Shown here: positions 2,296 to 16,031 of the stretch, piece by piece
Position numbering within the stretch: the first letter of the stretch is position 1
Layout of the letters: each line of letters opens with the position of its first letter
Virus record (IMG/VR): IMGVR_UViG_3300033121_002167
Span: 1-64,000 of that record
DNA: 64,000 nucleotides
Source of the DNA: a virus
Direction: 5' to 3' (one strand)
Made by a program: the position numbers and the translations under genes
Notes under the pieces: model-generated
Databases searched by the model: none
What the model was told of the DNA's origin: nothing
What the model saw: the letters and a program-made list of their open reading frames with translations, nothing else

Positions 2296-2367
2296 GCCCG
2301 TGAGCCTCACAGAGAATTCACACAATTCGAGGGTGGAAAACCACTCTCAATTTAATTCGAATATTCT

Positions 2368-3309
2368 GTGCAAACCCTCGAAGAAACGTGGTACAATAAA
2401 CCTATGGACGAGACGAACCCTCTCACCGACCAGGTCAATGCACTCGTTGCTTCGGCATCTGCTCTTCCCCCGCCGGCTCTCCCTGCGGACGCTGATGAAG
2501 ACTGGGGTCTTGCTGGCCGCGATCCGGACGCTGCGTGGGCGGACCGCAATGCCCGGAAGCCAGACATCTCTCACCTGAAGCCTGCGCTTGTGGTGGTGGA
2601 CGGTGCTCCCCTCCCGCTCTTTAACATCGGTGACAAGATCGTCATCGAGCGCTATGCTTCTGTCCTGGCAGCGCGTCCGTGGCTCGATACCCTGACGTAC
2701 ACGGTGGAGAGCATCGATGACGAGACTGGTGTGGTGAGTCTCTGGAACGAAGACCTGAAGCAGCATGCCCTGGGCAACTACATCACCGGCCCGAAGAAGG
2801 GTGACGTGTACTGCCTGGCCATCGCCAAGGAGACCATCGGCAAGAAGAAGCGTGGCCGACCGCGAGTTCGACCGTTGCCGCCGGAGGGTGAGCCCAAGCC
2901 TGTCCGCAAGGGGAAGCGCGGTCGCCCGCCTGGTTCCAAGAACCGCCCGAAAGATGTCATCGCTGCAGAGCGTGCTGCCAAGGAGAAGCGCGCAGAGGTC
3001 TCTGCTAAGCGGAAGCGTGGTCGACCGCGGAAGGTGAAGTTACCAGTGGCCCGCAAGAGGTGGACGTTCGGAACGCTGGAGCCTGGCGACTTGCTCTTTT
3101 CTGTCCCGGGCTCGATGCTCAACGAGTACTTGCTCGTCGTTGCAACCGTCCGGAATGAGATGCACGGCGCGTGTCACGATATCGTCACAATGTCAATGAT
3201 CAGCATATCCCCCGACGGGATGACACCGTTCACTGTGAACTTGAACGCTGACAGGAATGATTCAGATTTCTCGCTCCTGTTAAATTTGTTACTGGGAGTA
3301 CCTTTTTGA
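2368..3309 (+). CDS. AT-hook DNA-binding protein fused to C-terminal GDL-family domain
   Basis: three AT-hook cores KRGRPRV / KRGRPPG / KRGRPRK in a K/R/P-rich linker; C-terminal 'LEPGDLLFSVPGSMLNEYLLVVATV' matches array family. Confidence 0.5.
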   Translation: MQTLEETWYNKPMDETNPLTDQVNALVASASALPPPALPADADEDWGLAGRDPDAAWADRNARKPDISHLKPALVVVDGAPLPLFNIGDKIVIERYASVLAARPWLDTLTYTVESIDDETGVVSLWNEDLKQHALGNYITGPKKGDVYCLAIAKETIGKKKRGRPRVRPLPPEGEPKPVRKGKRGRPPGSKNRPKDVIAAERAAKEKRAEVSAKRKRGRPRKVKLPVARKRWTFGTLEPGDLLFSVPGSMLNEYLLVVATVRNEMHGACHDIVTMSMISISPDGMTPFTVNLNADRNDSDFSLLLNLLLGVPF

Positions 3310-3319: not shown

Positions 3320-3646
3320 ATGTTTGGCACCATTATCAACGAAACTGATCGAGCTCGTCTGAAAAAGGCTGGGCTGATGAATTGGCGCGACGTTGCAAAA
3401 GACCTTGTCCCGGGCGATCTTCTTTTCTTCTCCGGACCGGTCTCGACAGCTGCGCCCGGGGTGGTGCAGTATCATACGATGGGTCTTGTGATCTGCAATT
3501 TCGCACGGCCTTGGGATGGCAGCGGTCCTCAACATGGCACCGTGACGTTCATCATCTATTCTTCTACGTACGGCAGGCTCTCCGGGAAGCACGTGTCTAG
3601 AGAATGGAATAAAGGTGACATCAATGAGTACGTTCGAGTTAACTGA
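3320..3646 (+). CDS. GDL-family small protein (array member, N-extended)
   Basis: internal 'DLVPGDLLFFSGP' + central 'LVICNF' strand. Confidence 0.45.
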   Translation: MFGTIINETDRARLKKAGLMNWRDVAKDLVPGDLLFFSGPVSTAAPGVVQYHTMGLVICNFARPWDGSGPQHGTVTFIIYSSTYGRLSGKHVSREWNKGDINEYVRVN

Positions 3647-3895
3647 ATGAAGCTGATGAATCCGAAGTACCTCACATGGCGCGAGATTGGTGATCTTGCC
3701 GTCGGTGACCTGGTCATCTGGCACACCATCGATCGCGATATCTCGTACGAGATCGGACCGCACGTGGAGCTCATCGTGGGCCGGACAGTAGGTGACAGGG
3801 GCATCGAGCTCCTCATGTGGCGAGCTGCGACGGGTCACATGTGGTCAGCCCGTGAGACAGGGACGTTTGAAGATCGGGTGAACAAGGTATCATGA
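3647..3895 (+). CDS. GDL-family small protein (array member)
   Basis: 'AVGDLVIWH', 'ELIVGRT', ATGA coupling with neighbours. Confidence 0.5.
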   Translation: MKLMNPKYLTWREIGDLAVGDLVIWHTIDRDISYEIGPHVELIVGRTVGDRGIELLMWRAATGHMWSARETGTFEDRVNKVS

Positions 3896-4125
3896 TCATG
3901 AAGAACTTGAAGCACGGAGAAGTAAGACCTGGAGACATCTTGGTCTGGGCAACTGACCCTGTCGACGACGACCGCCCGCGCTACGACTTGGTAGTCTCAG
4001 TCCACGTAACTGGTGAATTCGTTTACTACTGGTGTTTTGAGTTGAGCAGCTTGGAAATATGGTCTTCGCAGAGCGCCTACAAGCGCACGCCGCTCACACC
4101 CGACGTTCTCAGGGTTGAGCCATGA
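3892..4125 (+). CDS. GDL-family small protein (array member)
   Basis: 'RPGDILVWA', overlaps neighbours by 4 nt. Confidence 0.5.
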   Translation: MIMKNLKHGEVRPGDILVWATDPVDDDRPRYDLVVSVHVTGEFVYYWCFELSSLEIWSSQSAYKRTPLTPDVLRVEP

Positions 4126-4382
4126 AGGGGCGGGGCGGCTGGCCGTTCATCGATCTTCTGCTACAAGTACCTTTGGCACGCATGGTGCCGGGAGACATCA
4201 TCGTCTTCAGAACCGCGTTTCCAGATCTCCTCATCTACAAGAGCGAACCGCAAGGTGTTAGGCACAAAGACATCACGATCGTCTTCTACCACGATGTCGT
4301 CTTCTACCACGATGGGCAGCTGAAGACGTTCCGCGTGACAACTGAAGCGCGGCTGACTTACATGGTGAAGTGCTCCAAGTGA
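4122..4382 (+). CDS. GDL-family small protein (array member)
   Basis: 'VPGDIIVFR'. Confidence 0.5.
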   Translation: MKGRGGWPFIDLLLQVPLARMVPGDIIVFRTAFPDLLIYKSEPQGVRHKDITIVFYHDVVFYHDGQLKTFRVTTEARLTYMVKCSK

Positions 4383-4492
4383 AATATGAGGATCAAGAAT
4401 GGCGGTCGAGCGGCGGTGGAGCGCGGCCCGGAGACTCTTGCGAGAGCCAAATTCATCGCTGTGAGCATATTCCCACCCAGTGCACACAACCC

Positions 4493-4771
4493 ATGAAATC
4501 CAAGATGAAGGCAGATAACACAGCGATGCGCGGTGATGAACCGGGTGTCCATCGAGCGGCGGTCCAGCTCGAGCCGGGAGACGTCTGGTACGACACAGAT
4601 CATCCAAGCGTCTACATCCTCCTGTCGACATCACCGTGGACCTTCCTCATCGTTGACGGCGGGAGGCTAGAACCGGTCCTGTGGTCGCCGCAGCTTCTTC
4701 CTGGAGAGGGTGAGGGTTACATCCGGACGCTGTTCATCGATGTTGTCTTCGTGCCGGGGAGAGATCGATGA
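4493..4771 (+). CDS. GDL-family small protein (array member; start uncertain)
   Basis: 'LEPGDVWYD'; shares ~26-bp direct repeat (ILLSTSPWTF codons) with next gene. Confidence 0.35.
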   Translation: MKSKMKADNTAMRGDEPGVHRAAVQLEPGDVWYDTDHPSVYILLSTSPWTFLIVDGGRLEPVLWSPQLLPGEGEGYIRTLFIDVVFVPGRDR

Positions 4772-5037
4772 CATCCCTAACCCCAGGAGCCACGTGGCTA
4801 GAGAAAGCCTACGATGGGCACTCAGAACCGCACTTCGTGATGTTCATCCTCCTGTCGACATCACCGTGGACATTCTTGGTCTCCAGCAAGATCGGTCAAC
4901 CAGAGGTATGGGTACTCAGTGGTCCGGATACAGAGAGTCACATCCTCTACCTCTTCGAGCACTCTGAAAAATTGGGTGAGAAATTGATCACCGCGATGAA
5001 TGCGTTAGTGCCATTCCCAGCCACCCTGAAATCGTGA
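4768..5037 (+). CDS. divergent GDL-family member
   Basis: repeat of 'catcctcctgtcgacatcaccgtggac' from previous gene; 89 aa. Confidence 0.35.
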   Translation: MTSLTPGATWLEKAYDGHSEPHFVMFILLSTSPWTFLVSSKIGQPEVWVLSGPDTESHILYLFEHSEKLGEKLITAMNALVPFPATLKS

Positions 5038-5543
5038 TCGCTGTGAGGAATTCCCACGAAAAAAGTCCCCCTCGTGCGTCGCTGTGAGGAAAGTGTCTCT
5101 CCAGAAGTTCAGCCTGCCACGTGACAACCGACAACCTCACAGAGCTGCGCTGCGATGACCCATATCCTCATAGACGACAATTTCGCCGGTGTTCCCAAGG
5201 AAACTGCACAGCAGCCTCACCGCAAGGAATTGCCCTCTGAGGGCATCTGTGACCCGGGCGGCGGAAGCCCTCCAAAGAGCCACTCACGAGAGTGCACTTC
5301 TGTTCTGCTGTGGTATACCATGGAGAGATGGAGGTGGTACCGTGGTAGGTTCGCTGTTTCGCGCCTTGAGTGGCGGTTTCTTGTTCCTCAGCAGCAAGTT
5401 GGAGTGGGAATGGATGCTGCTAGCGGGAACAGATCCGCACGGTGTGTTCATCTGCCTTGGTGAAGATTCTTACGAGGATATCCCGTTGCTCTGGGTATTG
5501 ACACCTTGGTCCACTGTGATGCGCGTTAACTGCGGGAACCTCG

Positions 5544-5843
5544 ATGCAATCCGGTGACTTGTGCTGCACTGTGGGGATGTACTGGGTTGAAGTTGGTCGG
5601 GAGCGCTTCTTTCGACTTGACGTCTACAACCGCCCCAGAACTTCTGGGAAGTGGCCATCTGGGCCTTGCATCTGGTTGTCCCGCGAGACCGTGGGCACCT
5701 CAGCAGGAACTGTTGTCCCGTGCGGGTGGATCATGAAGCCGGATGGTTCTGTCGTTCGGATTCCGATGGAGAGCTTGAGAGAATGTTTAGAGCTGGTGAT
5801 CTTCTCTCCGCGCAGCGTCTGGATACGGCGATCTACTCGTTGA
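5544..5843 (+). CDS. GDL-family small protein (array member)
   Basis: 'MQSGDLCCT', 'IMKPDGSVVRI'. Confidence 0.4.
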   Translation: MQSGDLCCTVGMYWVEVGRERFFRLDVYNRPRTSGKWPSGPCIWLSRETVGTSAGTVVPCGWIMKPDGSVVRIPMESLRECLELVIFSPRSVWIRRSTR

Positions 5844-5989
5844 GGTTGGGCCTTCGCTCGAGGCGCAGTAACTTCACGGTCTTGGTCACCTACGTCTCAC
5901 GGCATCCATGGAATCCGAACTACAGCTACGTTCTCTATTGCGGAGAGCTCGTTGCCATCTATGATAGCGACTTCGTGGTGATCAGATGA
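5783..5989 (+). CDS. GDL-family small protein (array member; internal start of ORF 5651..5989)
   Basis: 'MFRAGDLLSA', 'YVLYCGELVAIY'. Confidence 0.4.
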   Translation: MFRAGDLLSAQRLDTAIYSLRLGLRSRRSNFTVLVTYVSRHPWNPNYSYVLYCGELVAIYDSDFVVIR

Positions 5990-6153
5990 GAGCTGGAGAC
6001 TTGCTGGTTCTCTCCCACCGGACGTTGCATTACCCAATGGGTTACATCTTCATATTTGTCTCCTGCGTGTACGATCAGCTCACCGTCATGGACAATCACG
6101 GGTGCTTCATCTACCTTTGGAAGAACGAGGTGAGGCATGTTCTCCCCCGGTGA
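5986..6153 (+). CDS. GDL-family small protein (55 aa, below ORF-track cutoff)
   Basis: translates MRAGDLLVLSHRTLHYPMGYIFIFVSCVYDQ...; ATGA overlap upstream. Confidence 0.4.
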   Translation: MRAGDLLVLSHRTLHYPMGYIFIFVSCVYDQLTVMDNHGCFIYLWKNEVRHVLPR

Positions 6154-6364
6154 TTTGGTTCGGTTGGATTCTTTCGACGATGTCTTTCCGACAGTTGTCA
6201 GCACCGCACCATTTCGCTGCCGCATGTTTTACCCCACTGGTGAAGACGATGCTGCGGCCGGGGTCGCCGTTGGCACCCTAAAGATCGATGATGACGATTG
6301 CACCATTGTTCTTCACCGGTCCCGCGTTTTGATCACTTACCCTCACCGATGGCGACCACTCTGA
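6137..6364 (+). CDS. GDL-family small protein (array member)
   Basis: 'MFSPGDLVRL'. Confidence 0.5.
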   Translation: MFSPGDLVRLDSFDDVFPTVVSTAPFRCRMFYPTGEDDAAAGVAVGTLKIDDDDCTIVLHRSRVLITYPHRWRPL

Positions 6365-6567
6365 TGGCTTTTAATCGCGGTGATCTGCTCATGCCGAAGT
6401 ACCCAATGATCCAGTACCATGACCCATCGCATGAAAAGTGGCTCGTAGAGCACTTGGGTCCCATGGTCTTCTTGGGTTACCATGAAATTTGGGCTAAACG
6501 TTACATGTACGTCATTGCTGGTGATAAGATCCTCGTGGTTTCTTCTGGAGAGGTGTCACCCCTATGA
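6364..6567 (+). CDS. GDL-family small protein (array member)
   Basis: 'MAFNRGDLLMP','MVFLGYHE'; TGATG overlap. Confidence 0.45.
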   Translation: MAFNRGDLLMPKYPMIQYHDPSHEKWLVEHLGPMVFLGYHEIWAKRYMYVIAGDKILVVSSGEVSPL

Positions 6568-6812
6568 TGACGCTTGGAGACGTTCTTAGAATCCGGCGCA
6601 TCGAGGGCTGTGATTTCACTTACGTTGAGTATGCTGAAGTGCAGCCGGGCAAGTTCTCGGGTCGCATGGTCGATGTAGCTGGTGATTTTCCGCTCATCTA
6701 CCTTGGTGACTGCAACGTCCGGGGTGTCTCGCTGTGCTGGGTGATGTTTCCTTCTGGCCGCGTTTCCCGTGTTCTAGCTTCTGATTTGAAGGTTGTCTCC
6801 AGTGATCGGTGA
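6564..6812 (+). CDS. GDL-family small protein (array member)
   Basis: 'MMTLGDVLRI','LIYLGD','VMFPSGRVSRV'; GGAGAGG SD upstream. Confidence 0.55.
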   Translation: MMTLGDVLRIRRIEGCDFTYVEYAEVQPGKFSGRMVDVAGDFPLIYLGDCNVRGVSLCWVMFPSGRVSRVLASDLKVVSSDR

Positions 6813-7008
6813 TCTTCTAACCGGGAATTACGAAGGGAAGTACGCCCCTGTTTACGATGTTCGTAGGGGCACGTGGGGTACGGAGATAGTTGACCCTCTC
6901 CTCGTGATTGGTTGCTCGGCACGAGATCAAGAGTACGTGTATGGGCTTCTTGGAGAACGGATCGTGATAATCAAGATTGATGATTTTGTGAAGGTTGTCT
7001 CCCGATGA
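6793..7008 (+). CDS. GDL-family small protein (array member)
   Basis: 'VIGDLLTG','LLVIGCS'. Confidence 0.5.
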   Translation: MSPVIGDLLTGNYEGKYAPVYDVRRGTWGTEIVDPLLVIGCSARDQEYVYGLLGERIVIIKIDDFVKVVSR

Positions 7009-7106
7009 GCCGCTTTCCATTTATCCACGGTGATCTTCTTCTACCGATGGGAGATACTTTCACAACTATGAACATGTCAACCCACGTTGGTGTGTTGGGC
7101 ATTTAA
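7005..7106 (+). pseudogene. truncated GDL-family member (premature stop after ~33 codons)
   Basis: MSRFPFIHGDLLLPMGDTFTTMNMSTHVGVLGI* then ~125 nt with no family ORF. Confidence 0.35.
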
Positions 7107-7231
7107 TCGCAACGAACCGCTTATATACGTGAGTTCGTATGTCCCAGCTGGGAACTGTTACCACTTTGCTCTGGTTATAAATGTAGAAGGTTGTGCTGTA
7201 GAGTATTGGTTGAACGAGCTGGAACTGCTGC

Positions 7232-7405
7232 ATGAAGCGTGAACAGTTTAAGTCAGGCGATCTGGTCTATTGGATCCATGATGAAGTTCCGGGCATCAAC
7301 GTGTTCATCTGCACTGCGTCTGACACCGAGCACGTTGCTCTTATCATCCGCCCGACCGGCGATGTTCGCTGGCGTTGGGTTGATGAGCTTCTGGAGATAC
7401 AATGA
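7232..7405 (+). CDS. GDL-family small protein (57 aa, below ORF-track cutoff)
   Basis: MKREQFKSGDLVYWIHDEVPGINVFICTAS... Confidence 0.4.
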   Translation: MKREQFKSGDLVYWIHDEVPGINVFICTASDTEHVALIIRPTGDVRWRWVDELLEIQ

Positions 7406-7632
7406 CGATTCGTGCTGGTGATTTGCTGAGCGCAGTGTACACAACGTACATTGTGCTAGATCGTCACGGCACATGGAATTCAGTCCGGGCATGGGATCCA
7501 GAACGTGGGCATGTGGTCTTCATCTACCTTGCGCAGATGTTCGTTGGCAACATCAGAGCGTACCTGGTTCTGACATCGCATGGGCAAGTAGCAACGGTAG
7601 CAAGGAGCGATCTGAAGATTGATGAAACATAA
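7402..7632 (+). CDS. GDL-family small protein (array member)
   Basis: 'MTIRAGDLLSA','VVFIYLAQ'. Confidence 0.5.
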   Translation: MTIRAGDLLSAVYTTYIVLDRHGTWNSVRAWDPERGHVVFIYLAQMFVGNIRAYLVLTSHGQVATVARSDLKIDET

Positions 7633-7807
7633 TTTTGTCACAGGTGATCTTGTCACCATTTCTCTTGCATGGGACCGTGAGATCTATGTTTACTTGGCCG
7701 GTGTGATGTACGAAGTGGCAAAGGTCGCAATTCTTATGGGGTCGAACGGGAACATCAAAAGGTTCTACGAAAGCGACGTACAACCGCTTTGTAGGAGTCC
7801 ACTATGA
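7619..7807 (+). CDS. GDL-family small protein (array member)
   Basis: 'FVTGDLVTI','IYVYLAG'. Confidence 0.5.
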   Translation: MMKHNFVTGDLVTISLAWDREIYVYLAGVMYEVAKVAILMGSNGNIKRFYESDVQPLCRSPL

Positions 7808-8049
7808 AAGCTGGTGTTCTGGTCGTTCCCACGTTCAAGAGAATTTCAATGAATCCGCACGAGGCAGATCACTTCCTCAAAGTGAGGCAATCAAAGATTG
7901 CAGATGATTTCGCCGTAAACTTCTGCGTTGCTGTATACGTAAACAGCTTCAAAGTTGACGGTTTGCAGTACGTGTGGATCTTGCTACCAGACGGTCGTGT
8001 TATCTCTACGTACGCCGGCTCCGTTAAAGAGCTGCAGTGGGTTGAATGA
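7804..8049 (+). CDS. GDL-family small protein (array member)
   Basis: 'MKAGVLVVP','YVWILLPDGRVIS'. Confidence 0.5.
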   Translation: MKAGVLVVPTFKRISMNPHEADHFLKVRQSKIADDFAVNFCVAVYVNSFKVDGLQYVWILLPDGRVISTYAGSVKELQWVE

Positions 8050-8273
8050 ATATCGAACCTGGAGATCTTGTCTGCTCGAAGAGCAAGTTCATATCAACCT
8101 GCAATCCGATATCTGGTTATTACCTGGGTCAGTGCTTGGTTGACGATGAAGTGTTGCTGTGCGTCGGTGTTTTCATTATCGAGCCTACCCAGTTTCGTCG
8201 CAATCGCATACTGATCATGCGCGAAACTGGTGAGCTGGTTGTTACGTACGTCGACAACGTGTTTTTCATCTGA
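8046..8273 (+). CDS. GDL-family small protein (array member)
   Basis: 'MNIEPGDLVCS','VLLCVGV'. Confidence 0.5.
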   Translation: MNIEPGDLVCSKSKFISTCNPISGYYLGQCLVDDEVLLCVGVFIIEPTQFRRNRILIMRETGELVVTYVDNVFFI

Positions 8274-8285
8274 TGAGGTGTCGCT

Positions 8286-8447
8286 ATGAAAGTTGGTGAC
8301 TTGGTTGTCCCACGAAAAAATTATTTGCCAGAAGCGTGCATCATCATAGGGTTTGGTCAGCTCAAGTCAGGAGCGACTTGGGCTTGGGTCTTGCTGTTCA
8401 GCGGACGCGTCAACAGATACTACGTTGGTGCACTAGAGCTGCTATGA
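8286..8447 (+). CDS. GDL-family small protein (53 aa, below ORF-track cutoff)
   Basis: MKVGDLVVPRKNYLPEACIIIGFGQLKSGATWAWVLLFSGRVNRYYVGALELL*. Confidence 0.4.
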   Translation: MKVGDLVVPRKNYLPEACIIIGFGQLKSGATWAWVLLFSGRVNRYYVGALELL

Positions 8448-8662
8448 AGATCGGCGATCTGGTCTGCAGCGACTCGAGAGATCTGTACGTCCTCACGTTG
8501 AAAGCACCCTATGAATATGGTCTTCACGGCTTCGAAGTTCCCGGTTCTGGACCTTTCGTGTACGTTGGTATTAGCGGTCGTGGCAACGGAAGCTTGGTTC
8601 TTATCTTGCTTCCGTCTGGTGTCTTGGTAGAAGTTCATCCATCAAGACTAAGGCCTTTGTAA
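8444..8662 (+). CDS. GDL-family small protein (array member; internal start of ORF 8336..8662)
   Basis: 'MKIGDLVCS','FVYVGIS','LILLPSGVLVEV'. Confidence 0.5.
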   Translation: MKIGDLVCSDSRDLYVLTLKAPYEYGLHGFEVPGSGPFVYVGISGRGNGSLVLILLPSGVLVEVHPSRLRPL

Positions 8663-8702
8663 CGCTGTGCACTGGTGCCACAAAATGGGTTACAATTGTT
8701 AG

Positions 8703-8951
8703 ATGGCAGTGACACTTCCGGGTGACATGGTGATTCTACAATCGCATGGAAGTACGTACGTGACGACCATTTCACTGCATGAGGACGGCGCGCGGCTCGT
8801 GTATAAAGATTTCAAGCCCACAGATGAAGAATGCCGAGCAGCTGGCACTTTTCTTGGCACGGTCACGTGGGATGATTGTAACCTCGCAGTCGTATTGTTC
8901 CGCGGTGAGATCTGGGTCTCTTTCCCGCACCAGTTCAAGGTTGTCAAGTGA
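8703..8951 (+). CDS. GDL-family small protein (array member)
   Basis: 'TLPGDMVIL','AVVLFRGEI'. Confidence 0.5.
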   Translation: MAVTLPGDMVILQSHGSTYVTTISLHEDGARLVYKDFKPTDEECRAAGTFLGTVTWDDCNLAVVLFRGEIWVSFPHQFKVVK

Positions 8952-9115
8952 GCGATTCATTTCGTAGCGGTGACTTGGTTAACTGGGCCGCCCAGCACAC
9001 CGTGTACATCTACTTGTGTCGTTGTGATCCGGATTCTGCATTCGCTTACGTTATAGCACCGAATGGGCAGATTGATTGGTTCTACGTCTGTGATCTGAAG
9101 CACGCGGAGCAATGA
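8948..9115 (+). CDS. GDL-family small protein (GTG start, 55 aa)
   Basis: (V)SDSFRSGDLVNWAAQHTVYIYLCR...APNGQIDWFYV. Confidence 0.35.
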   Translation: MSDSFRSGDLVNWAAQHTVYIYLCRCDPDSAFAYVIAPNGQIDWFYVCDLKHAEQ

Positions 9116-9285
9116 TGAAATCCGGGGATCTGGTCTATTGGATCTACGATAACCACGTAATACCAAAGAGGTCAGTGTTGATCTACGTGGGCACGGACCA
9201 TGTTCACCCTAGCATTGCCTGCGTTGTCTGCTCGTCTGGGCAAGTTGCCTGGCGATACGCAAGCGAGCTGAGAGAGCTGCTATGA
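9112..9285 (+). CDS. GDL-family small protein (57 aa)
   Basis: MMKSGDLVYWIYDNH...VLIYVGT...CSSGQVAW. Confidence 0.4.
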   Translation: MMKSGDLVYWIYDNHVIPKRSVLIYVGTDHVHPSIACVVCSSGQVAWRYASELRELL

Positions 9286-9503
9286 TGCTGCCGGGAGATC
9301 TGCTTACCACGCGGCACACAACGATCATTGAAGCACCCATGATACCCATGGTATTTGAGAAATTTGCGTTCTTCAAAGTTAAACCCAACTTCATCTGCAT
9401 GTGTGTAGGTTGCGAGACGATCGCCGGCGAGGATTACAAGTGGGTCCTGCTTCCGTCAGGGAAGTTGACACGCATCGTTGCAGCTGACTTGGTGCCCGCA
9501 TGA
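9282..9503 (+). CDS. GDL-family small protein (array member)
   Basis: 'MMLPGDLLTT','VLLPSGKLTRI'. Confidence 0.5.
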   Translation: MMLPGDLLTTRHTTIIEAPMIPMVFEKFAFFKVKPNFICMCVGCETIAGEDYKWVLLPSGKLTRIVAADLVPA

Positions 9504-9679
9504 AAGAATCATTCAAGACTGGTGATCTGCTGCGATTTGAAAACCGATTGTCTCAGACTCGGAGCCCCATGGTGTGTATGGGAACGCTTGACAGCCTTCA
9601 CGGCGACTGCCTGGTTCGCGTCATGTTTCCCAACGGACAGATTGCAGTGTACTACGCGAGCAACTTGAGGAAGCTATGA
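9500..9679 (+). CDS. GDL-family small protein (59 aa)
   Basis: MKESFKTGDLLRFEN...MVCMGTL...VMFPNGQIAVYY. Confidence 0.4.
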   Translation: MKESFKTGDLLRFENRLSQTRSPMVCMGTLDSLHGDCLVRVMFPNGQIAVYYASNLRKL

Positions 9680-9888
9680 AAACCGGTACTTTGGTGAAGA
9701 TCAACAGAGACAATGTCATCATATGCGAGCTTGATTCTGATCATCCAAAGATTCGCAACTTTGGCTCTAACGAGCGACTTGCTGTTTACTTGAACGACTA
9801 TCGAGTGCATGGTGGTAATTACGCGTTGGTGATTCTTCCATCTGGTCACTTGATTTACGTGTACAACCACGACTTGAGTCTCCCGTGA
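9676..9888 (+). CDS. GDL-family small protein (array member)
   Basis: 'MKTGTLVKI','LAVYLND','LVILPSGHLIYVY'. Confidence 0.5.
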   Translation: MKTGTLVKINRDNVIICELDSDHPKIRNFGSNERLAVYLNDYRVHGGNYALVILPSGHLIYVYNHDLSLP

Positions 9889-10064
9889 AGAAGATTAAGA
9901 TCGGCGATCTAGTTCAGGCGAAGGTTGGATATCATTCTCATGATACCATCATGATTTGCATCGGCCTTCGCGTTGGGGCTTGGGGTGATCTGATCGTTCG
10001 AGTGATGCTGCCAAACGGCAGGGTGCTAACGTACTACGCCTATGATATTATTGCGCTATCATGA
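9885..10064 (+). CDS. GDL-family small protein (GTG start, 59 aa)
   Basis: (V)KKIKIGDLVQAK...IMICIGL...VMLPNGRVLTYY. Confidence 0.35.
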   Translation: MKKIKIGDLVQAKVGYHSHDTIMICIGLRVGAWGDLIVRVMLPNGRVLTYYAYDIIALS

Positions 10065-10160
10065 ATGATGTTTCAATTAACGTCGGCGACCTGCTTTCTT
10101 CTGGGTCATGCTTCCCAATGGTAAAGTTGTTTCTACCCTCGCGAGCGAAGTGAAAGATGC
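10061..10160 (+). pseudogene. degraded GDL-family member (internal deletion/frameshift)
   Basis: MNDVSINVGDLLSS then C-terminal 'WVMLPNGKVVSTLASEVK' only in a different frame. Confidence 0.3.
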
Positions 10161-10390
10161 CCGCGTCTAAGTGTATATTCAAACCAGGGGACCTTATGAA
10201 GCCCACGTTGTCAGACTTGTGCTATAACGATCCAGATGATGTTAGAACGCACCGGACAAAAACACATGTTGGCAAACCAATCCTCTTGTGCACTGGCATA
10301 ACAGATGATGATCTCGGGGTTGTCGTGTTCTTCATGTTTCCTTGGGGAGAGACCGGTAGAACATCTTACGCTGAGGTACAACCATTGTGA
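10157..10390 (+). CDS. GDL-family small protein (array member)
   Basis: 'FKPGDLMKP','ILLCTGI','FMFPWGETGRT'. Confidence 0.5.
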   Translation: MPASKCIFKPGDLMKPTLSDLCYNDPDDVRTHRTKTHVGKPILLCTGITDDDLGVVVFFMFPWGETGRTSYAEVQPL

Positions 10391-10605
10391 ACGTTGGTGA
10401 TCTGCTTAGGTCGAAGTACGACGACATCTTGTACCGTCGATTCAACGATGGTATTTTGACCGGCGCACGGATGTTGAGCGGTCGATACTTCTTCCTATTG
10501 TACTTGGGTACGTTTACAGACGTTGGTGGAACGCCAGGTTTTATATTCATGTTCCCATGGGGTGAGGTTGGCTGGGCTGCGATGCACGAGCTTGAAACAC
10601 TATGA
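10387..10605 (+). CDS. GDL-family small protein (array member)
   Basis: 'MNVGDLLRS','FLLYLGT','FMFPWGEVGWA'. Confidence 0.5.
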   Translation: MNVGDLLRSKYDDILYRRFNDGILTGARMLSGRYFFLLYLGTFTDVGGTPGFIFMFPWGEVGWAAMHELETL

Positions 10606-10811
10606 AAGTCGGCGATCTGCTAACGTCAACGTACAGCAACTTTTTGTACTTCATTGGTGATGATCCAGCGCAAAAGGCGTCACGTTTTCACAGCGGCCGC
10701 GGTCTTGTTCTCTTGTGCCTGGGATTCGACGAGAACCGCAGTTACGTGTACTTCTTGCTGCCATCAGGTGCTATCGGCCACGCAAAGCACAGTGAGATCA
10801 TAGGCCTATGA
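10602..10811 (+). CDS. GDL-family small protein (array member)
   Basis: 'MKVGDLLTS','LVLLCLGF','FLLPSGAIGHA'. Confidence 0.55.
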   Translation: MKVGDLLTSTYSNFLYFIGDDPAQKASRFHSGRGLVLLCLGFDENRSYVYFLLPSGAIGHAKHSEIIGL

Positions 10812-11032
10812 AGTTCAAAATTGGTGATCTTGTTGGATGTGATTGGCCTGAGCTAATCATCAATGATGATGAATCTATGTCTGGTTACAAGCACGGAAAC
10901 GCCAAAGAGCTTTTCTTGTGCATCGGAACTTTCTGCGTGGAGGAGCAAGAAGTCATTGTCATCATGTTTCCAAATGGCAGGGTTGAAAGGGTCAACTCAT
11001 GCGAGCTGATAATCCTCAAGGAGGCGGAGTGA
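10808..11032 (+). CDS. GDL-family small protein (array member)
   Basis: 'FKIGDLVGC','LFLCIGT','IMFPNGRVERV'. Confidence 0.55.
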   Translation: MKFKIGDLVGCDWPELIINDDESMSGYKHGNAKELFLCIGTFCVEEQEVIVIMFPNGRVERVNSCELIILKEAE

Positions 11033-11038
11033 ACCGTC

Positions 11039-11389
11039 ATGTGCACCGGTGATTTGGTGAGAACACGATCACGCTATGGATCCAGAACGTTCTATACAGA
11101 AGGGGGCAAGTGGTGGATGCACGACGCATCGAAAGGGTTGAAGTCATACATGTTGTATTCCGATGAACAGTGCATGTACTTGGGAAAAGCAGACGATTCA
11201 GTGATCGGTAGCTTCTTCTGCATCCCGCGGTGCCAAATAGTCTTTGTCGAAGTTGACGGGATGCAGGTGATATTATGCGCGCGGGCGATCTTGCTAGAGC
11301 GCGACATGAGCATGTTCGCGCTCAAATTTGGGTTGAAGATGAGGGCTGGTTTAACGATGGAGAACGAATTCCAGCGAGAGATCTTCTGA
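11039..11389 (+). CDS. GDL-family small protein (array member, C-terminally extended ORF)
   Basis: 'MCTGDLVRT','CMYLGKA'; next member starts inside at 11275. Confidence 0.4.
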   Translation: MCTGDLVRTRSRYGSRTFYTEGGKWWMHDASKGLKSYMLYSDEQCMYLGKADDSVIGSFFCIPRCQIVFVEVDGMQVILCARAILLERDMSMFALKFGLKMRAGLTMENEFQREIF

Positions 11390-11493
11390 TCTACGTGGGT
11401 GTTGTGCAGAGCGACACGTTGACGTACTTCTTGCACTGCTCGTCGGGGAAAATAATTGTTTGCGATATCTTTGACGTAACTAAGGTGTGGTGA
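11275..11493 (+). CDS. GDL-family small protein (array member)
   Basis: 'MRAGDLARA','LLIYVGV'. Confidence 0.5.
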   Translation: MRAGDLARARHEHVRAQIWVEDEGWFNDGERIPARDLLIYVGVVQSDTLTYFLHCSSGKIIVCDIFDVTKVW

Positions 11494-11726
11494 TGGAGAG
11501 CGGCGATCTTGTGATAGCCAAGGGTTCGCATGGGGTCTACGTATATCATTACGACAACAAGGGGTTTTGGGTCTGGAATGGTACAATTGCGGCGGCGTTT
11601 CAACTACACGTATACTTGTGTAAAGTTCCACACGTTAAACATGGGCGTCTTTCTTACTTTTTGTCTACCGTCGATTTGAAGATTCGTGTGTGTCGCGAAT
11701 ATGCCTTCGTAAAGATTGAACCATGA
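11487..11726 (+). CDS. GDL-family small protein (array member)
   Basis: 'MESGDLVIA'. Confidence 0.5.
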   Translation: MVMESGDLVIAKGSHGVYVYHYDNKGFWVWNGTIAAAFQLHVYLCKVPHVKHGRLSYFLSTVDLKIRVCREYAFVKIEP

Positions 11727-11953
11727 AGGCGCAGACTGTCGGACAGCTCGTTTGCTTGAAACGATCGTTGCCATTTGACTTTGCTATCACGTTCGTGAAA
11801 ACTAGTCATGGTCTTGGTACGATGGGACAAATGGTTGATAGAGCCACACTTCTAGTGTACTTGGGTGATTATGACAATAGCTACGGTTACTACCTTGTCA
11901 ACGTTACCGGTTCCATTGTAATATCACTCAAAGGAAACTTCGAACCACTATGA
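11723..11953 (+). CDS. GDL-family small protein (array member)
   Basis: 'TVGQLVCL','LLVYLGD'. Confidence 0.5.
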   Translation: MKAQTVGQLVCLKRSLPFDFAITFVKTSHGLGTMGQMVDRATLLVYLGDYDNSYGYYLVNVTGSIVISLKGNFEPL

Positions 11954-12186
11954 GCACAGAGTTCAAGACTGGTGATCTAGTGAAGTCCGTCGAGGACGAG
12001 GTGGCGACGTACAAGATTAGCCATGATCCACGCATCGGTCCAATTCAGTTTGAACGTTACGTAGGGGTGAGCGGTTTTCATGTCTTCTTGGGATACATCG
12101 ACGGGAGCAAAAATAACGGTTACTTTCTTAACGCTCGCGATGGTCGAATCTACATCTGCTTCAGGGGAAACTTTAGGCTAGCATGA
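11950..12186 (+). CDS. GDL-family small protein (array member)
   Basis: 'FKTGDLVKS','HVFLGYI'. Confidence 0.5.
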   Translation: MSTEFKTGDLVKSVEDEVATYKISHDPRIGPIQFERYVGVSGFHVFLGYIDGSKNNGYFLNARDGRIYICFRGNFRLA

Positions 12187-12401
12187 AATCAGGCGACCTA
12201 GTGATCACTTGCGCGAATTCTACATACATCAAAGAGTTTGCTCTCTACGACCCTCGATCAGAAGAACTCCTGTGTTGGCAGGGCAGCAACGTGTTGTTCA
12301 TCTATTTGGGTCCTCATCGATCTAAGATCATGAGCTACTACGTGCGTTACGATGGTTTGATCTGTGCCGCCCATTGTCGCAATTTTGCGAAGCTACAATG
12401 A
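12183..12401 (+). CDS. GDL-family small protein (array member)
   Basis: 'MKSGDLVIT','LFIYLGP'. Confidence 0.5.
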   Translation: MKSGDLVITCANSTYIKEFALYDPRSEELLCWQGSNVLFIYLGPHRSKIMSYYVRYDGLICAAHCRNFAKLQ

Positions 12402-12646
12402 AGATAGGAACGTTGCTGAAGTTGAAGGAAGGCACAGTGCGTTACTGCGTATGCTGGTCGCCTGCTCCACGGGACAACGGCACGTGGTACTGGATGTACG
12501 CTAATGATGTGCGCATGGAAGATGAATTCATTGTGTTCCTTGGACATCACGAAGGCGACACCCTGTCAAAGAGCGTCGGTTGCTTCTTGTCTGTGTCGCA
12601 AGGAATCATCTGGCTTTCAAAGCACAATTTCGTCGAGGTTAAATGA
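12398..12646 (+). CDS. GDL-family small protein (array member; internal start of ORF 12374..12646)
   Basis: 'MKIGTLLKL','FIVFLGH'. Confidence 0.45.
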   Translation: MKIGTLLKLKEGTVRYCVCWSPAPRDNGTWYWMYANDVRMEDEFIVFLGHHEGDTLSKSVGCFLSVSQGIIWLSKHNFVEVK

Positions 12647-12885
12647 TAGCTGTCGGTGATCTTCTTGTTCTGAAATCCAGAAGTGAAAACTTTGCGCCTG
12701 GTTGGGATTCTTCTCTCAGTGAAAGCTGCTGGATGTCACCGGACGACGTGTTCATCTTTCTCGGCGTTGCAGAGAAGTGGACAGATCAGGCAGGTTCGAG
12801 ATGGTATGGAATCGTCTTGCGAGCTAGAGATGAAAAAGTGCTAGTGTTCCCTGATTACTGCTTTGAACCATGTCACCCCAACTGA
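12643..12885 (+). CDS. GDL-family small protein (array member)
   Basis: 'AVGDLLVL','VFIFLGV'. Confidence 0.5.
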   Translation: MIAVGDLLVLKSRSENFAPGWDSSLSESCWMSPDDVFIFLGVAEKWTDQAGSRWYGIVLRARDEKVLVFPDYCFEPCHPN

Positions 12886-13106
12886 TACAACATCGCTGGA
12901 CGCAGATCGGATACCACGTGGAATTTGAGCATGCTTACGAGATCCCACATCGTGCCATGCCCTGGCTTCCTGGTGATGTTGTCAGACCGGCGTGGGATGA
13001 CTACGATCGCAAACTAAACGATTTTGCTCCGGAGCCAGCTGGCATCGTTATCAACTATGATCGAACGACAAAAGACATGCTGATCCTGTGGAGCGATGCA
13101 CCGTGA
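12870..13106 (+). CDS. divergent GDL-family member
   Basis: 'WLPGDVVRP','MLILWSD'. Confidence 0.4.
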   Translation: MSPQLIQHRWTQIGYHVEFEHAYEIPHRAMPWLPGDVVRPAWDDYDRKLNDFAPEPAGIVINYDRTTKDMLILWSDAP

Positions 13107-13333
13107 AGAGCGTGAAAAAGCTGAAGATAGGATCATTGTTGATCCCAACCTCTTCATTTCATTGGTTGTACTCAACAAATCCGATTCACTCGCAGGTGAT
13201 CACAGCTCACGGTCGACCACTGTACGTGTACCTCGGAAACATGGTTGACCGTGATGATGCTCCGGCTCTGTACATTCTTACGCCAGATTGTGAAATCTAC
13301 TTGACCGATGCTGAGAACGTTGAAGAGCTATGA
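13088..13333 (+). CDS. GDL-family small protein (array member)
   Basis: 'LKIGSLLIP','LYVYLGN','YILTPDCEIYL'. Confidence 0.5.
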   Translation: MERCTVKSVKKLKIGSLLIPTSSFHWLYSTNPIHSQVITAHGRPLYVYLGNMVDRDDAPALYILTPDCEIYLTDAENVEEL

Positions 13334-13578
13334 AATCAGGTGACCTGGTCGCATCGCGGTTCGCAGCAACAACGTGCTTCGAAGTGCACCCTGAATTCGG
13401 TCTGCTGATCAGAACGATAGCTAGCGATGAAATTTGCACGTTCATCTGCAAGCTCTCCCGTGATGACCAAAGAAGGGTGCATCCATCGTTGGGCACGTAC
13501 ACCGCTGCGACGATGATGATCATGCGTGCTGATTGCAGCCTCGTGTACGTCGACAAAAGGATGCTATCAAAGCTATGA
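13330..13578 (+). CDS. GDL-family small protein (array member)
   Basis: 'MKSGDLVAS'. Confidence 0.5.
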   Translation: MKSGDLVASRFAATTCFEVHPEFGLLIRTIASDEICTFICKLSRDDQRRVHPSLGTYTAATMMIMRADCSLVYVDKRMLSKL

Positions 13579-13823
13579 TCGATCTAGATGATCTACTTCT
13601 TGGAACGTTGCTTCGACCGAATGCTGACGCTTCTGGATCTCGTCACTGGATTTATAAGTGGAACGTTTCTAAGACGTACGAAGCGTTTTATGAAGCACCA
13701 GGACCGGTGTATGCGTACATGGGCATGATTCCCGTTGAGGGTGAAACAACTGCTTATGCTTTGAGCTCTAAGGACGGTGCTTTGTACGAAATATGCACGA
13801 GAGAATTTGAGGTCATCCCGTGA
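13575..13823 (+). CDS. GDL-family small protein (array member; internal start of ORF 13533..13823)
   Basis: 'LDDLLLGTLLRP','VYAYMGM'. Confidence 0.4.
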   Translation: MIDLDDLLLGTLLRPNADASGSRHWIYKWNVSKTYEAFYEAPGPVYAYMGMIPVEGETTAYALSSKDGALYEICTREFEVIP

Positions 13824-14065
13824 AGTCAGGCGATCTTGTGATACCAGGGCACGAAGCGATATACTGCTTCGCTGACAGAGAGCCGGCTGGTTACACGACG
13901 ATCTTGTGGAAAGAAATTCTTATTTACGTCAGCGATCTTACACAAGATGACTGCGATTACGAGTACTTCTCGCGGTGGACGAAGTCACCAGAAAACATTG
14001 CACGCGTCATCAGAGAGTCTGGGAGGATTGTCTACATCGACAGAAGGGACGTTGTGACCCTATGA
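13820..14065 (+). CDS. GDL-family small protein (array member)
   Basis: 'MKSGDLVIP','ILIYVSD'. Confidence 0.5.
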   Translation: MKSGDLVIPGHEAIYCFADREPAGYTTILWKEILIYVSDLTQDDCDYEYFSRWTKSPENIARVIRESGRIVYIDRRDVVTL

Positions 14066-14337
14066 AAGTGCGCGCGCCCACAGATTGCCATGGCACTAAA
14101 ATCAGCTGCGGATCGATCGTAGTACCGTCTGACGCTGCAGTCAACATGCCGCCGTTGACACGGCACCTTAAGGGCACTTGGGTCACATCATTCCGCAATG
14201 GAATACCAAACACCAAGAAAGAATTTCTTCTTTGCATTGGGCATGAAGCGTACATCGAAGGAGGTTCTGTGCTTCACCTCTTTTCACCAACGATAGGATT
14301 GATCAACTTGTACGCGCATGAGGTGGCGCTGTGTTGA
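14062..14337 (+). CDS. GDL-family small protein (array member; internal start of ORF 13975..14337)
   Basis: 'GSIVVPS','FLLCIGH','HLFSPTIGLINLY'. Confidence 0.4.
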   Translation: MKVRAPTDCHGTKISCGSIVVPSDAAVNMPPLTRHLKGTWVTSFRNGIPNTKKEFLLCIGHEAYIEGGSVLHLFSPTIGLINLYAHEVALC

Positions 14338-14564
14338 CGGGCGACTTGTGCATGCCCGCGAGATGGAGCTCGACAACAGACGTCAGATACTTGTCTGCAC
14401 AGAACGTGGTAACATCACGACGAGCTCAATACGGTGATATTTTTCTGTTCATGTGTTGGTACGCTGAACCCAATAAGTTCGGTGATCGTAGACAGCTAGC
14501 ACAATTGATGCTCTCTGACGGATCGATAGTCATGCTTTACGACGGAGAGTTTCAGAAGATATGA
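14331..14564 (+). CDS. GDL-family small protein (GTG start)
   Basis: 'LTGDLCMP','IFLFMCW','LMLSDGSIVMLY'. Confidence 0.45.
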   Translation: MLTGDLCMPARWSSTTDVRYLSAQNVVTSRRAQYGDIFLFMCWYAEPNKFGDRRQLAQLMLSDGSIVMLYDGEFQKI

Positions 14565-14794
14565 ACATAAACATTGGTGATCTATGCTCGCCGATTGGAA
14601 ACGGTGCAGTAAGCTACATCGACCCAGTTGGAAATTTTCCAACCAATGTTTGGGCGCGAAGGAGCGATGTGCTACTGTTCATCGGCTGGGTTAACATTGT
14701 CACCCTCTCTACGCAAAGTACGTCGTTGGCTGTGTTTGTGCTGCCTGATGGAACGATAGCATCGCTGTACAACAGAGAATTTAAGCTGCTATGA
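14561..14794 (+). CDS. GDL-family small protein (array member)
   Basis: 'NIGDLCSP','VLLFIGW','FVLPDGTIASLY'. Confidence 0.55.
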   Translation: MNINIGDLCSPIGNGAVSYIDPVGNFPTNVWARRSDVLLFIGWVNIVTLSTQSTSLAVFVLPDGTIASLYNREFKLL

Positions 14795-15066
14795 CGATCA
14801 AAGTCGGTGATCTGTGCACCCCCTCGGGAGACGTCATCCAATTCAGGTACATGAACATCACGCCTCGCGAAAACGGAACGAACGTTTGGACTGTCAACAT
14901 GAATCTTCCACGGATTAACCCAAACGTCACGTTCTTGTGCATCGGATTCTTGCAGGCGCGGAGGATTGACGTTTCAACTATGGAGATGTCCACAATTGCT
15001 ATTTTGCTGCACGCACAGCTCAAAACTGTCACATTTCTCCTTGCTGAAGAGATCGAGGCACTGTGA
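14791..15066 (+). CDS. GDL-family small protein (array member)
   Basis: 'KVGDLCTP','TFLCIGF'. Confidence 0.5.
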   Translation: MTIKVGDLCTPSGDVIQFRYMNITPRENGTNVWTVNMNLPRINPNVTFLCIGFLQARRIDVSTMEMSTIAILLHAQLKTVTFLLAEEIEAL

Positions 15067-15287
15067 TGGATGGCATTCGCGCCGGTGCTCTTTGCTCACC
15101 AACACCAGAGCTTGAAGGTGAAATTTACTGCAACGCTCATTTTGCTATGCACAAGCGCATCGTCATATTCCGTCATCACAAGCTAGTGTTCTTGTACAGC
15201 GCTGATAGAGAGTACCCAAGGCTGTGCTACTTCATCTTGGGTGATCAGATAGTTGGACTGATCGAGGGTGAGTTCAAAGAACTATGA
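15063..15287 (+). CDS. GDL-family small protein (array member)
   Basis: 'IRAGALCSP','FILGDQIVGLIEGEF'. Confidence 0.5.
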   Translation: MMDGIRAGALCSPTPELEGEIYCNAHFAMHKRIVIFRHHKLVFLYSADREYPRLCYFILGDQIVGLIEGEFKEL

Positions 15288-15538
15288 TGAACTATTCAAG
15301 CGTCAAAATTCTGCCTGGCGACCTTTGCCGCCCAACGAGAGCATGTGCCAGCAGCAATTTGCAGTACATCAACTTTGCTAGCGCAACGGCATCTGAACGT
15401 GTTGTCAAGAGAGATGACGTTCTTGTGTTCATCTGCTGGAGAGCATGGCGCGTGGACCAGCCAGCAAATTACGCTCAGTTCATCACTCCCGACGGAGAAA
15501 TACTGTCGCTGAGAGCTGGGGAGTTTGAGGTTATATGA
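15284..15538 (+). CDS. GDL-family small protein (array member)
   Basis: 'LPGDLCRP','VLVFICW','FITPDGEILSL'. Confidence 0.5.
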   Translation: MMNYSSVKILPGDLCRPTRACASSNLQYINFASATASERVVKRDDVLVFICWRAWRVDQPANYAQFITPDGEILSLRAGEFEVI

Positions 15539-15789
15539 AGACATTTCGGGCAGGCGATCTTGTTGTCACTGACTTCGCACCGGGCAGTGCCATGTACATT
15601 GCAGTCGATGAAGGATATGGTTACAATCACTTCACAGCGAGTGGAGATGAAATTTCAAGTTCTGACGTATCATCTGGTTACGTGTTCTTGGGTTATCATC
15701 CTGACAATCTCAGCGTTGTGATGCTGCTCAACAACAGCGACGGAAGGATCGTTCAACTTTACGATGACGAGATTGAGCAGCTAAGATGA
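15535..15789 (+). CDS. GDL-family small protein (array member)
   Basis: 'FRAGDLVVT','YVFLGYH','LLNNSDGRIVQLY'. Confidence 0.55.
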   Translation: MKTFRAGDLVVTDFAPGSAMYIAVDEGYGYNHFTASGDEISSSDVSSGYVFLGYHPDNLSVVMLLNNSDGRIVQLYDDEIEQLR

Positions 15790-16031
15790 AACCCGTTGTT
15801 AAGCCCGGAGCGATTGTTAAGCCCATCGACGACATCTTCTTCTTTGAGGACATAGGGGCGCAGGTGGTGGGTCGTGAGCTCACGAACCATGCCGGTTTGT
15901 GCGCCGTCGTATATTCACCCGGCTGTGATTGCGCGTCATGGTGCCCTGAACTTCACGTGTTGGGCTTGCTCACTGCTAGCGGGCGAATCAAGTTCGTATA
16001 CTCATCTCAAGTAAAGATCATTGTTGACTAA
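15786..16031 (+). CDS. GDL-family small protein (array member)
   Basis: 'VKPGAIVKP','LLTASGRIKFVY'. Confidence 0.5.
   Translation: MKPVVKPGAIVKPIDDIFFFEDIGAQVVGRELTNHAGLCAVVYSPGCDCASWCPELHVLGLLTASGRIKFVYSSQVKIIVD

Follow-up and report, generated by a model that had tools for sequence, protein, structure and literature searches.

AT-hook proteins and the phage locus

AT-hooks are a classic motif of eukaryotic chromatin, and HMGA1 (HMG-I/Y; PF02178) carries several of them as RGRP cores with K/R and P flanks in a disordered basic region, together with an acidic tail and without any globular domain. The best-studied prokaryotic case is CarD of the myxobacterium Myxococcus xanthus, whose N-terminal domain binds RNA polymerase (via its β subunit) and CarG, and whose HMGA-like tail binds AT-rich minor grooves with four AT-hooks (PMC6061681). 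The silencers H-NS and Lsr2 read AT-rich minor grooves with an RGR-type motif, and mobile elements encode homologues of them (PMC10011098, PMC7074111). Here, we describe a gene for a putative AT-hook protein at positions 2404..3309 (+ strand) of a viral DNA stretch of 64,000 nucleotides (nt) (IMG/VR record IMGVR_UViG_3300033121_002167, positions 1 to 64,000; referred to as the window), which is a piece of a huge phage and contains an array of about 57 small paralogous genes downstream of the AT-hook gene.

The protein shares with HMGA1 the multiple RGRP cores with K/R and P flanks in a disordered basic region and an acidic tail, but carries the latter at its N-terminus. Unlike HMGA1, it contains a conserved β-barrel, is encoded by a prokaryotic virus, and its predicted hooks score below the Pfam gathering threshold. 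With CarD (a CarD_CdnL_TRCF N-domain followed by the HMGA-like tail) it shares the order of a small β-rich interaction domain and an AT-hook tail, and some relatives of both carry histone-H1-like K/A/P tails, as far as the titles of references 45-46 in PMC6061681 indicate for CarD. We regard Myxococcus CarD as the closest functional analogue, by analogy of the modules. The closest known systems for the barrel itself are the Tudor/SH3-like small β-barrels of ribosomal L19, SAWADEE, Spindlin, SMN Tudor and KOW. Like the H-NS/Lsr2 silencers, the phage protein is encoded by a mobile element and has a predicted RGR-type motif for AT-rich minor grooves; whereas those proteins combine an oligomerisation domain with a single Q/RGR in a folded DNA-binding domain, it combines a barrel with a disordered multi-hook tail. 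Neither a Pfam match nor sequence similarity to the H-NS and Lsr2 families was found for the window protein and 119 homologues.

From these comparisons we favour, with slightly better than even confidence, the reading that the protein acts as an HMGA/CarD-like, DNA-anchored adaptor or architectural factor, and that its C-terminal part is a recently captured neighbouring open reading frame (ORF). The protein would then consist of an acidic N-terminal tail, an SH3/Tudor-like barrel and a disordered, basic segment bearing HMGA-type AT-hooks, two in the family and three in this lineage. By entering the minor groove at short A/T tracts, the RGRP cores of these hooks would anchor the protein on DNA. 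The barrel would provide an interaction surface for a protein or nucleic-acid partner, and the protein would take part in phage DNA transactions or transcription. The C-terminal ORF would once have been translated separately via a GTGA overlap and would then have been joined in frame by a change of one net base. The family comprises at least 274 clusters and joins canonical HMGA-type hooks to a predicted Tudor/SH3-like barrel, in a conserved neighbourhood beside genes for a RecA-like ATPase and a major-vault-protein homologue. If its members bind AT-rich DNA, they would be candidate architectural or transcription-adaptor proteins of huge phages and a handle on their genome organisation.

Reading frame, start site and selection

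The ORF is uninterrupted on the + strand from GTG 2368 to the TGA at 3307-3309 and encodes 313 amino acids (aa), according to the ORF list and its translation. It is a real ORF, and ATG 2404, yielding 301 aa, is a more probable start than GTG 2368, because most gene calls of the orthologues start with MDETNPL (P0002, P0003, P0004 and the gene of the relative L006) and because a terminator-like hairpin at 2329..2348 (+) directly precedes the GTG. This hairpin, GAGGGTGG-AAAA-CCACTCTC followed by AATTTAATT, lies between the preceding small ORF and the AT-hook gene and was recognised by a consensus scan only; a scan for sigma-70 promoters near the AT-hook gene returned nothing convincing. Residue numbers below refer to the 301-aa form unless stated otherwise. 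Orthologues are 98%, 90% and 84-100% identical to the protein, and the ratio of nonsynonymous to synonymous polymorphism (pN/pS) is 0.03-0.09 for the N-terminal part and 0.19-0.32 for the C-terminal part. The gene is thus under strong purifying selection; the C-terminal part evolves several-fold faster than the N-terminal part, yet purifying selection persists there as well.

The first 47 residues (2404..2544, +) form a variable acidic tail (the 50 N-terminal aa contain 10 D/E and 2 R), which is poorly conserved in alignments of 20 and 119 homologues. The AlphaFold2 model places short helices at residues 6-18, 28-38 and 41-50, with a predicted local distance difference test (pLDDT) score of about 68-87.

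A predicted β-barrel defines the protein family

The segment that defines the family covers aa 48-141 (2545..2826, +; RKPDISHL...PLFNIGDKIVIERYAS...RPWLDTLTY...IDDETG...LWN...GDVYCLA) and had been missed in the first-pass annotation. In the AlphaFold2 model, which is based on the alignment of 119 sequences, residues from about 45 to 140 are all-β with pLDDT values of 94-98, and aa 48-141 are predicted to form a small barrel of five or six strands that matches known SH3/Tudor structures and carries its own GDKIVIE strand. A Foldseek comparison of the full model with BFVD gave no match at E<=1e-3.

A search of 5.8 billion proteins returned at least 264 homologues, nearly all of about 200 aa, unannotated and of metagenomic origin, on contigs of up to 309 kb. 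The alignments of 20 and 119 sequences share the conserved block KPDISxL...PLFxxGDKIVIERYAxxLxGxPWLDTxTYxVxxID..TG...LW, and the consensus of the hooks in the family reads KKRGRPRK and KRGRPxGSKNRPKxVIxAEK. Searched by itself against 1.84 billion representatives, the conserved block identified 274 clusters (50% identity). Their proteins are all 114-334 aa long and carry the block close to the N-terminus. The barrel family has no model in Pfam or PHROG, and the PHROGs contained no match for the AT-hook protein, the vault-like protein or any array member. Neither megablast of window positions 1-12000 nor tblastn of the AT-hook protein matched any of 50,697 GenBank phage records, and we found no literature on the AT-hook/barrel family. 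It is a conserved unannotated family that is apparently confined to uncultivated huge phages.

Because a β-rich domain is followed by a hook-bearing tail, we considered a specifically CarD-like transcription adaptor, in which the barrel would bind host or phage RNA polymerase and the hooks would dock on AT-rich DNA upstream of promoters, activating or redirecting transcription. The module logic matches that of Myxococcus CarD with its domain binding the polymerase β subunit and its four-hook HMGA-like tail (PMC6061681), and four family members (P0042, P0053, P0105 and P0113) carry a long histone-H1-like, K/A/P-rich tail after two hooks, as CarD orthologues do according to a reference title cited in the same paper. 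However, Pfam CarD_TRCF_RID matched neither the window protein nor any of the 119 members at E<=1, so membership of the CarD/CdnL/TRCF-RID family is not supported by the sequences, and the neighbouring genes belong to DNA metabolism, chaperones and a vault-like protein rather than to transcription. We consider this specific version unlikely, and keep to the broader reading of a DNA-anchored adaptor or architectural factor.

In a further group of relatives (P0143, P0163, P0180, P0191, P0193 and P0195) the tail is replaced by a different conserved β-rich C-terminal domain (...RRIY..KG..HTR..G..YV.P...W.E.W).

Three AT-hooks in a basic tail

The first-pass annotation had named three AT-hook cores in a basic, Pro-rich linker, and these are indeed present as KKKRGRPRV, KGKRGRPPGSKNRPK and KRKRGRPRK at aa 161, 183 and 216 in the numbering of the 313-aa form; in the 301-aa form, the RGRP cores occupy residues 150-153, 172-175 and 205-208. 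The 85-aa stretch bearing them contains 32 K/R and 11 P residues. None of 100,000 shuffles of the protein yielded three or more RGRP cores, and only 1% yielded at least one, which puts the number of cores far beyond chance. The hook segments show no regular secondary structure and low pLDDT values in the AlphaFold2 model.

AT-hook 1 (KKKRGRPRV, with the flank KKKRGRPRVRP; 2842..2868, +) is disordered in the model, and its residues R150, G151, R152 and P153 do not vary among 20 homologues and hardly vary among 119. AT-hook 2 (2908..2952, +) is of the extended HMGA type (KGKRGRPPGSKNRPK); its residues R172, G173, R174, P175, G177, K179 and N180 are invariant across the 119 homologues, and the segment KRGRPPGSKNRPK almost copies the human HMGA1 hook RGRPKGSKNK. 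Among all sequences of solved structures, the best match of the family profile was the HMGA1 AT-hook peptide 2ezd, with an E value of 0.073 and an alignment at hook 2. This hook is followed by a basic helix (KDVIAAERAAKEKRAEVSAKRKR; 2950..3018, +), which AlphaFold2 places at residues 183-205 with pLDDT values of about 88-92; its 'VIxAEK' stretch is conserved in both alignments. AT-hook 3 (KRKRGRPRK, with the flank KRKRGRPRKVK; 3007..3033, +) is specific to the lineage of the window, P0001, P0002 and L006: 108 of the 119 homologues have two hooks and eight have three. Because the hooks are conserved family-wide and the HMGA1 peptide is the best structural match, the identification as AT-hooks is right, as judged by sequence comparison, and is better supported than could be known when it was first made.

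Extended AT-hooks of some eukaryotic proteins bind RNA. The phage protein might accordingly be an RNA-binding protein, whose L19/Sm-like barrel and arginine-rich extended AT-hooks would bind structured RNA instead of DNA. We consider this very unlikely, given that hook 2 matches the canonical DNA-binding hook of HMGA1 almost residue for residue and that the H1-like tails of relatives point to DNA as well.

Split and fused versions of the gene

A search with residues 215-301 (window 3046-3306) revealed a stand-alone protein of 91 aa (P0121) that is 91% identical to this part of the AT-hook protein. In L006, which encodes it, the AT-hook gene has only 210 codons and ends with ...KRGRPRG*, and the gene for P0121 starts at a GTG overlapping the TGA stop codon (GTGA); it is followed by an orthologue of 107/108 aa of the ORF starting at 3320 in the window. 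A DNA alignment of the window, L001 and L006 locates the junction at 3028..3039 (+), where the window reads CGG AAG GTG AAG and L006 reads CGG GGG TGA with the GTG start overlapping the stop (CGGAAGGTGAAG in the window vs. CGGGGGTGAAG in L006). The difference amounts to one net base (AA to G), which joins the two frames, and L001 reads as the window. The last 91 residues are therefore probably the first small downstream gene, joined in frame by a one-net-base change, and not an original domain of the protein. Just before its stop codon the AT-hook gene of L006 has five consecutive G (CGG GGG TGA), where -1 slippage is conceivable.

Outgroups also end the AT-hook gene at the junction and start an overlapping small ORF with a PGD motif there, of 80 aa in L003 and 59 aa in L008. 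Because these distant relatives are split at the same place, the two-gene arrangement is probably ancestral for the clade and the fusion recent.

Since a close relative has the split state and the difference is a single net base, the long ORF might be an assembly or sequencing artefact, with two genes everywhere. This is highly improbable: independent assemblies share the fused frame (the window, L001/P0001 with 27 sequences, P0002 with 5, P0003 with 8, and P0004), and the change from AA to G is not a homopolymer-length error in the window version. The fused allele is thus real because it recurs in several independent assemblies.

The C-terminal part varies further among genomes that are more than 84% identical (P0003, P0004 and L006:4169-4468). 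P0003 (cluster of 8 sequences) has an in-frame deletion of the GDL motif and the first strands, which removes about half of the C-terminal region, and P0004 is a 222-aa gene call that stops after WTF.

The covalent link is accordingly polymorphic, probably recent and apparently dispensable, and therefore it is weak evidence that the proteins of the array act on nucleic acid. The first-pass annotation had taken the fusion to suggest that the small family domain works on or near nucleic acid; a link that depends on a one-net-base polymorphism lends this little weight, and what survives is a weaker form of the argument that relies on the recurrent gene neighbourhood described below. The split and fused alleles show that an indel at a gene boundary can create an apparent multidomain protein, which calls for caution in reading function from a single fusion.

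Observations that weigh against the favoured reading

Several observations weigh against an HMGA/CarD-like factor with a recently captured C-terminus. The Pfam AT_hook model (PF02178), which comprises only 13 positions, scored the window copy at 13.5-13.7 bits (E 0.06-0.07), under its gathering score of 17.4 bits. A Pfam domain prediction, as had been proposed as a check of the first-pass annotation, thus matched the hooks without passing the threshold for this copy; support came from the family as a whole, of which 92 of 119 members matched AT_hook at E<=1 (best 3.1e-4). The window hooks are sub-threshold by Pfam's own rule, but the other evidence for them is much stronger than the Pfam score. 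Furthermore, 50 of 132 family representatives, some of them fragments, lack a [RKP]GRP core. Because hooks are degenerate or absent in distant members, which have other tails instead, the barrel and not the hooks is the constant element of the family; a basic tail of DNA-binding type often accompanies it, in varying form.

As for the fusion, its direction is likewise uncertain, including its polarity within the closest group. The fused form is commoner (27 sequences in the P0001 cluster and 5 in the P0002 cluster), with a single occurrence of the split form; in the N-terminal part, the window is closer to L006 than to L001.

Finally, we considered an enrichment of A/T tracts in the window as binding sites, which was rejected: runs of at least eight A/T (W>=8) occur 48 times, vs. 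82.5 +/- 6.3 in codon shuffles within genes, and runs of at least six occur 283 times vs. 348 +/- 14. Nine of the 48 longer runs fall in the non-coding 12% of the window. Because the tracts are depleted, abundant targets in the phage's own genome are not evident, and any sites would be either infrequent in the phage genome or located on host DNA. The depletion of long tracts fits a target other than the phage genome, as expected for a host-directed nucleoid factor or counter-silencer that would compete with H-NS, Lsr2 or MvaT for AT-rich minor grooves or coat AT-rich host DNA at takeover. H-NS and Lsr2 indeed recognise AT-rich DNA by Q/RGR motifs that resemble AT-hooks, and homologues of such silencers occur in phages (PMC10011098, PMC7074111). 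However, the protein has no oligomerisation domain of the H-NS/Lsr2 type and no Pfam matches to such families, and the depletion is modest and may have other causes. We regard such a role as quite unlikely, although more probable than binding of RNA, and retain the DNA-anchored adaptor or architectural factor as the preferred reading.

The C-terminal region and the array family

The first-pass annotation had further described the end of the protein as a domain matching the array family. The C-terminal extension (aa 211-301; 3034..3309, +), which corresponds to the stand-alone 91-aa gene for P0121 of L006, has only the short EPGDLLF motif (3079-3099) in common with the array, and no significant match over the full domain was obtained. 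A hidden Markov model (HMM) of the array, iterated on its 57 members from the window, did not match the 313-aa ORF at E<=10 with filters off. A broader HMM including the arrays of relatives gave E values of 6 for the window, 0.42 for L001 and 1.2 for L006 against a database of 4008 ORFs, and phmmer, blastp and jackhmmer searches recovered orthologues only. In an hhalign comparison with the array, 16 residues around PGDLL were aligned, with a probability of 19.5% and P=0.0012.

The distinct N-terminal barrel served as a control and gave a comparable match, limited to the motif, via its FNIGDKIVIE strand (P about 0.01), which implies that a first strand of the G-D-hydrophobic type is common to small barrels and not a signature of the family. 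Homology of this barrel with the array was itself rejected, since hhalign aligned the F-x-x-GD strand only, with a probability of about 4%. The chance of finding the motif GD[LIMV][LIVMC] is about 2.4% per 88-aa segment of the other proteins of this phage. The window, P0001 and P0121 share EPGDLLF, but the orthologue P0002 (89% identical) reads PGNLLAS there and P0003 has lost the motif by deletion; the G of the array motif is invariant in 56 array members. The resemblance is thus suggestive and mildly informative, at the level of the motif only.

In the AlphaFold2 model, the last 75 residues are poorly modelled, and the C-terminal region reaches pLDDT values of 44-65, with strands at 242-249, 260-267 and 280-283 and a helix at 287-297. 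The most conserved piece of the C-terminal part is the hydrophobic tail SDFSLLLNLLLG, which includes the tail helix SDFSLLLNLLL (3262-3294). One trait of the array applies to the region, as it forms a separate small gene on the same strand with a 4-nt overlap in L006. By the sequence comparisons, the C-terminal region does not qualify as a demonstrable member of the array family; it may have a small β-rich fold like that of the neighbouring SH3-like array proteins.

These data also bear on the alternative that the protein truly consists of two modules, AT-hooks and an array-family ('GDL') domain fused to them, which would imply a role of the array proteins on or near nucleic acid. The position of EPGDLLF near the start of the appended ORF with the hhalign P value and base rate given above, the pattern of YLLVVATV, IVTMSMIS and ISPDGMTPFTV resembling β2, β3, the PxG turn and β4 of the array proteins, and the place of the C-terminal piece at the first position of the small-gene series all agree with it, as do the significant array-HMM matches in L004, L011, L012 and L013, which lie no more than 6 kb from the AT-hook gene. 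On the other side stand the lack of significant full-domain similarity by HMM, jackhmmer, blastp and hhalign, the similar motif-only match of the unrelated N-terminal barrel, the mutation or loss of the motif in orthologues, the low pLDDT values, and the fusion being a one-base polymorphism. In addition, the array profile found 12 matches in 5.8 billion proteins, all stand-alone and of 74-81 aa, and no array-family domain fused to other modules elsewhere, in a word-index search of limited sensitivity. We judge a genuine two-module protein to be unlikely, about as much so as the specifically CarD-like adaptor. The C-terminal extensions of P0029 and P0030, tried as candidates for an independent fusion to the array domain, gave no significant HMM match.

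The array and the neighbouring small genes

The core array at 5174..19805 (+) consists of about 57 small paralogues of 53-122 aa, which mostly overlap by ATGA and share an N-terminal GDL motif and a predicted SH3-like barrel; the HMM iterated on the window recognised 57 members there, all on the + strand. They are very divergent (11-34% identical), and one of them was modelled as an SH3-like small β-barrel with a pLDDT of 93.9. Pfam gave scattered single matches only for 56 array members, and the array family is represented neither in Pfam nor in PHROG. Two further members are located near 29.7-30.2 kb (29730-29966, +, and 29961-30155, -).

Between the AT-hook gene and the core array lie six divergent small ORFs (3320..5037, +), several with PGD[LI] motifs, which are not significant array-HMM matches; jackhmmer ties those at 3647, 3892 and 4122 to each other and to ORFs of L013, and not significantly to the main array. 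As stated in the first-pass annotation, the AT-hook gene lies upstream of the array: it ends 10 nt before the first small ORF, which starts at 3320, and shares the strand of the array. The description that it heads the array holds for its upstream position and strand, but small ORFs on the same strand also precede it, so that it sits within a zone of small genes rather than strictly at the head of the array. Such upstream ORFs are found in the window at 1629-2295 (+), for example at 2071-2295 with 'LQPGTLLLW', and in L006 at 2239-3455, where five ORFs of 76-92 aa precede the AT-hook gene. None of the ORFs upstream of the AT-hook gene was a significant array-HMM match.

Small ORFs with PGD[LMIR] motifs are located just downstream of the AT-hook gene in L003, L004, L008, L011, L012, L013 and L014, which include the four with significant array-HMM matches mentioned above. 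This recurrent neighbourhood, together with translational coupling, suggests co-expression and a possible functional link. In L011 (L011:2212-5512 of IMGVR_UViG_3300033075_001734), a low-GC phage whose AT-hook protein is 35% identical, an independent run of at least 12 small ORFs with PGDL motifs directly follows the AT-hook gene, and five of these are significant array-HMM matches.

A more far-reaching idea is that the AT-hook protein would be the DNA-anchoring hub of a 'chromatin-like' system of the phage, with the small SH3-like proteins as interchangeable docking partners, whose genes number one to three in relatives and about 57 here, with an independent series of them in L011. On this view, the coexistence of split and fused alleles would be a 'Rosetta stone' for a physical interaction, and the G-run of the split allele could permit some -1 frameshifting to produce short and long forms. 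We regard this as a long shot, hardly more probable than the RNA-binding alternative, although the interest of the locus would rise if the idea of a hub and its partners held.

Genome context

The gene order of RecA/KaiC-like ATPase, AT-hook gene, small ORFs and vault-like gene is kept in L003, a contig of 309 kb from the Joint Genome Institute (JGI), where fragments of a T4-type capsid gene (Gp23) follow the vault-like gene. In L003, only three small genes lie between the AT-hook and vault-like genes, compared to 16.5 kb of small genes in the window. The window encodes the homologue of the eukaryotic major vault protein at 19824-22511 (+; 895 aa), with MVP_shoulder (2e-30), Vault repeats and an SPFH-like region. 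Among the 50,697 GenBank phage records, its only matches were in three 'uncultured phage' records of 462-735 kb, and the genome of 735 kb is the largest reported in PMC7162821.

The window also contains an auxiliary gene repertoire typical of huge phages on the - strand, with genes for a Cpn60/TCP-1 chaperonin (30571-32196), a UvdE UV-endonuclease (32542-33474), an ADP-ribosylglycohydrolase (35599-36513) and an RNA ligase (46992-48014), in addition to an AAA ATPase and a C1 papain-family cysteine peptidase split by an intein (41651-43633, -; Intein_splicing 4e-18). Three probable homing endonuclease genes are located on the - strand at 751-1428 (weak PHROG homing-endonuclease match), 57987-58832 (GIY-YIG and NUMOD1) and 62945-63925 (ROS_MUCR zinc finger and NUMOD3). 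The first of these is located between the gene for the RecA-like ATPase and the AT-hook locus. In one subclade (L004:7768-12058, L007/L010), the AT-hook gene is flanked by genes for a MoxR-type AAA_5 ATPase and a DUF2201 (VWA-like/metallopeptidase-like) protein, and an AAA_5 gene is present near the AT-hook gene of L003 as well.

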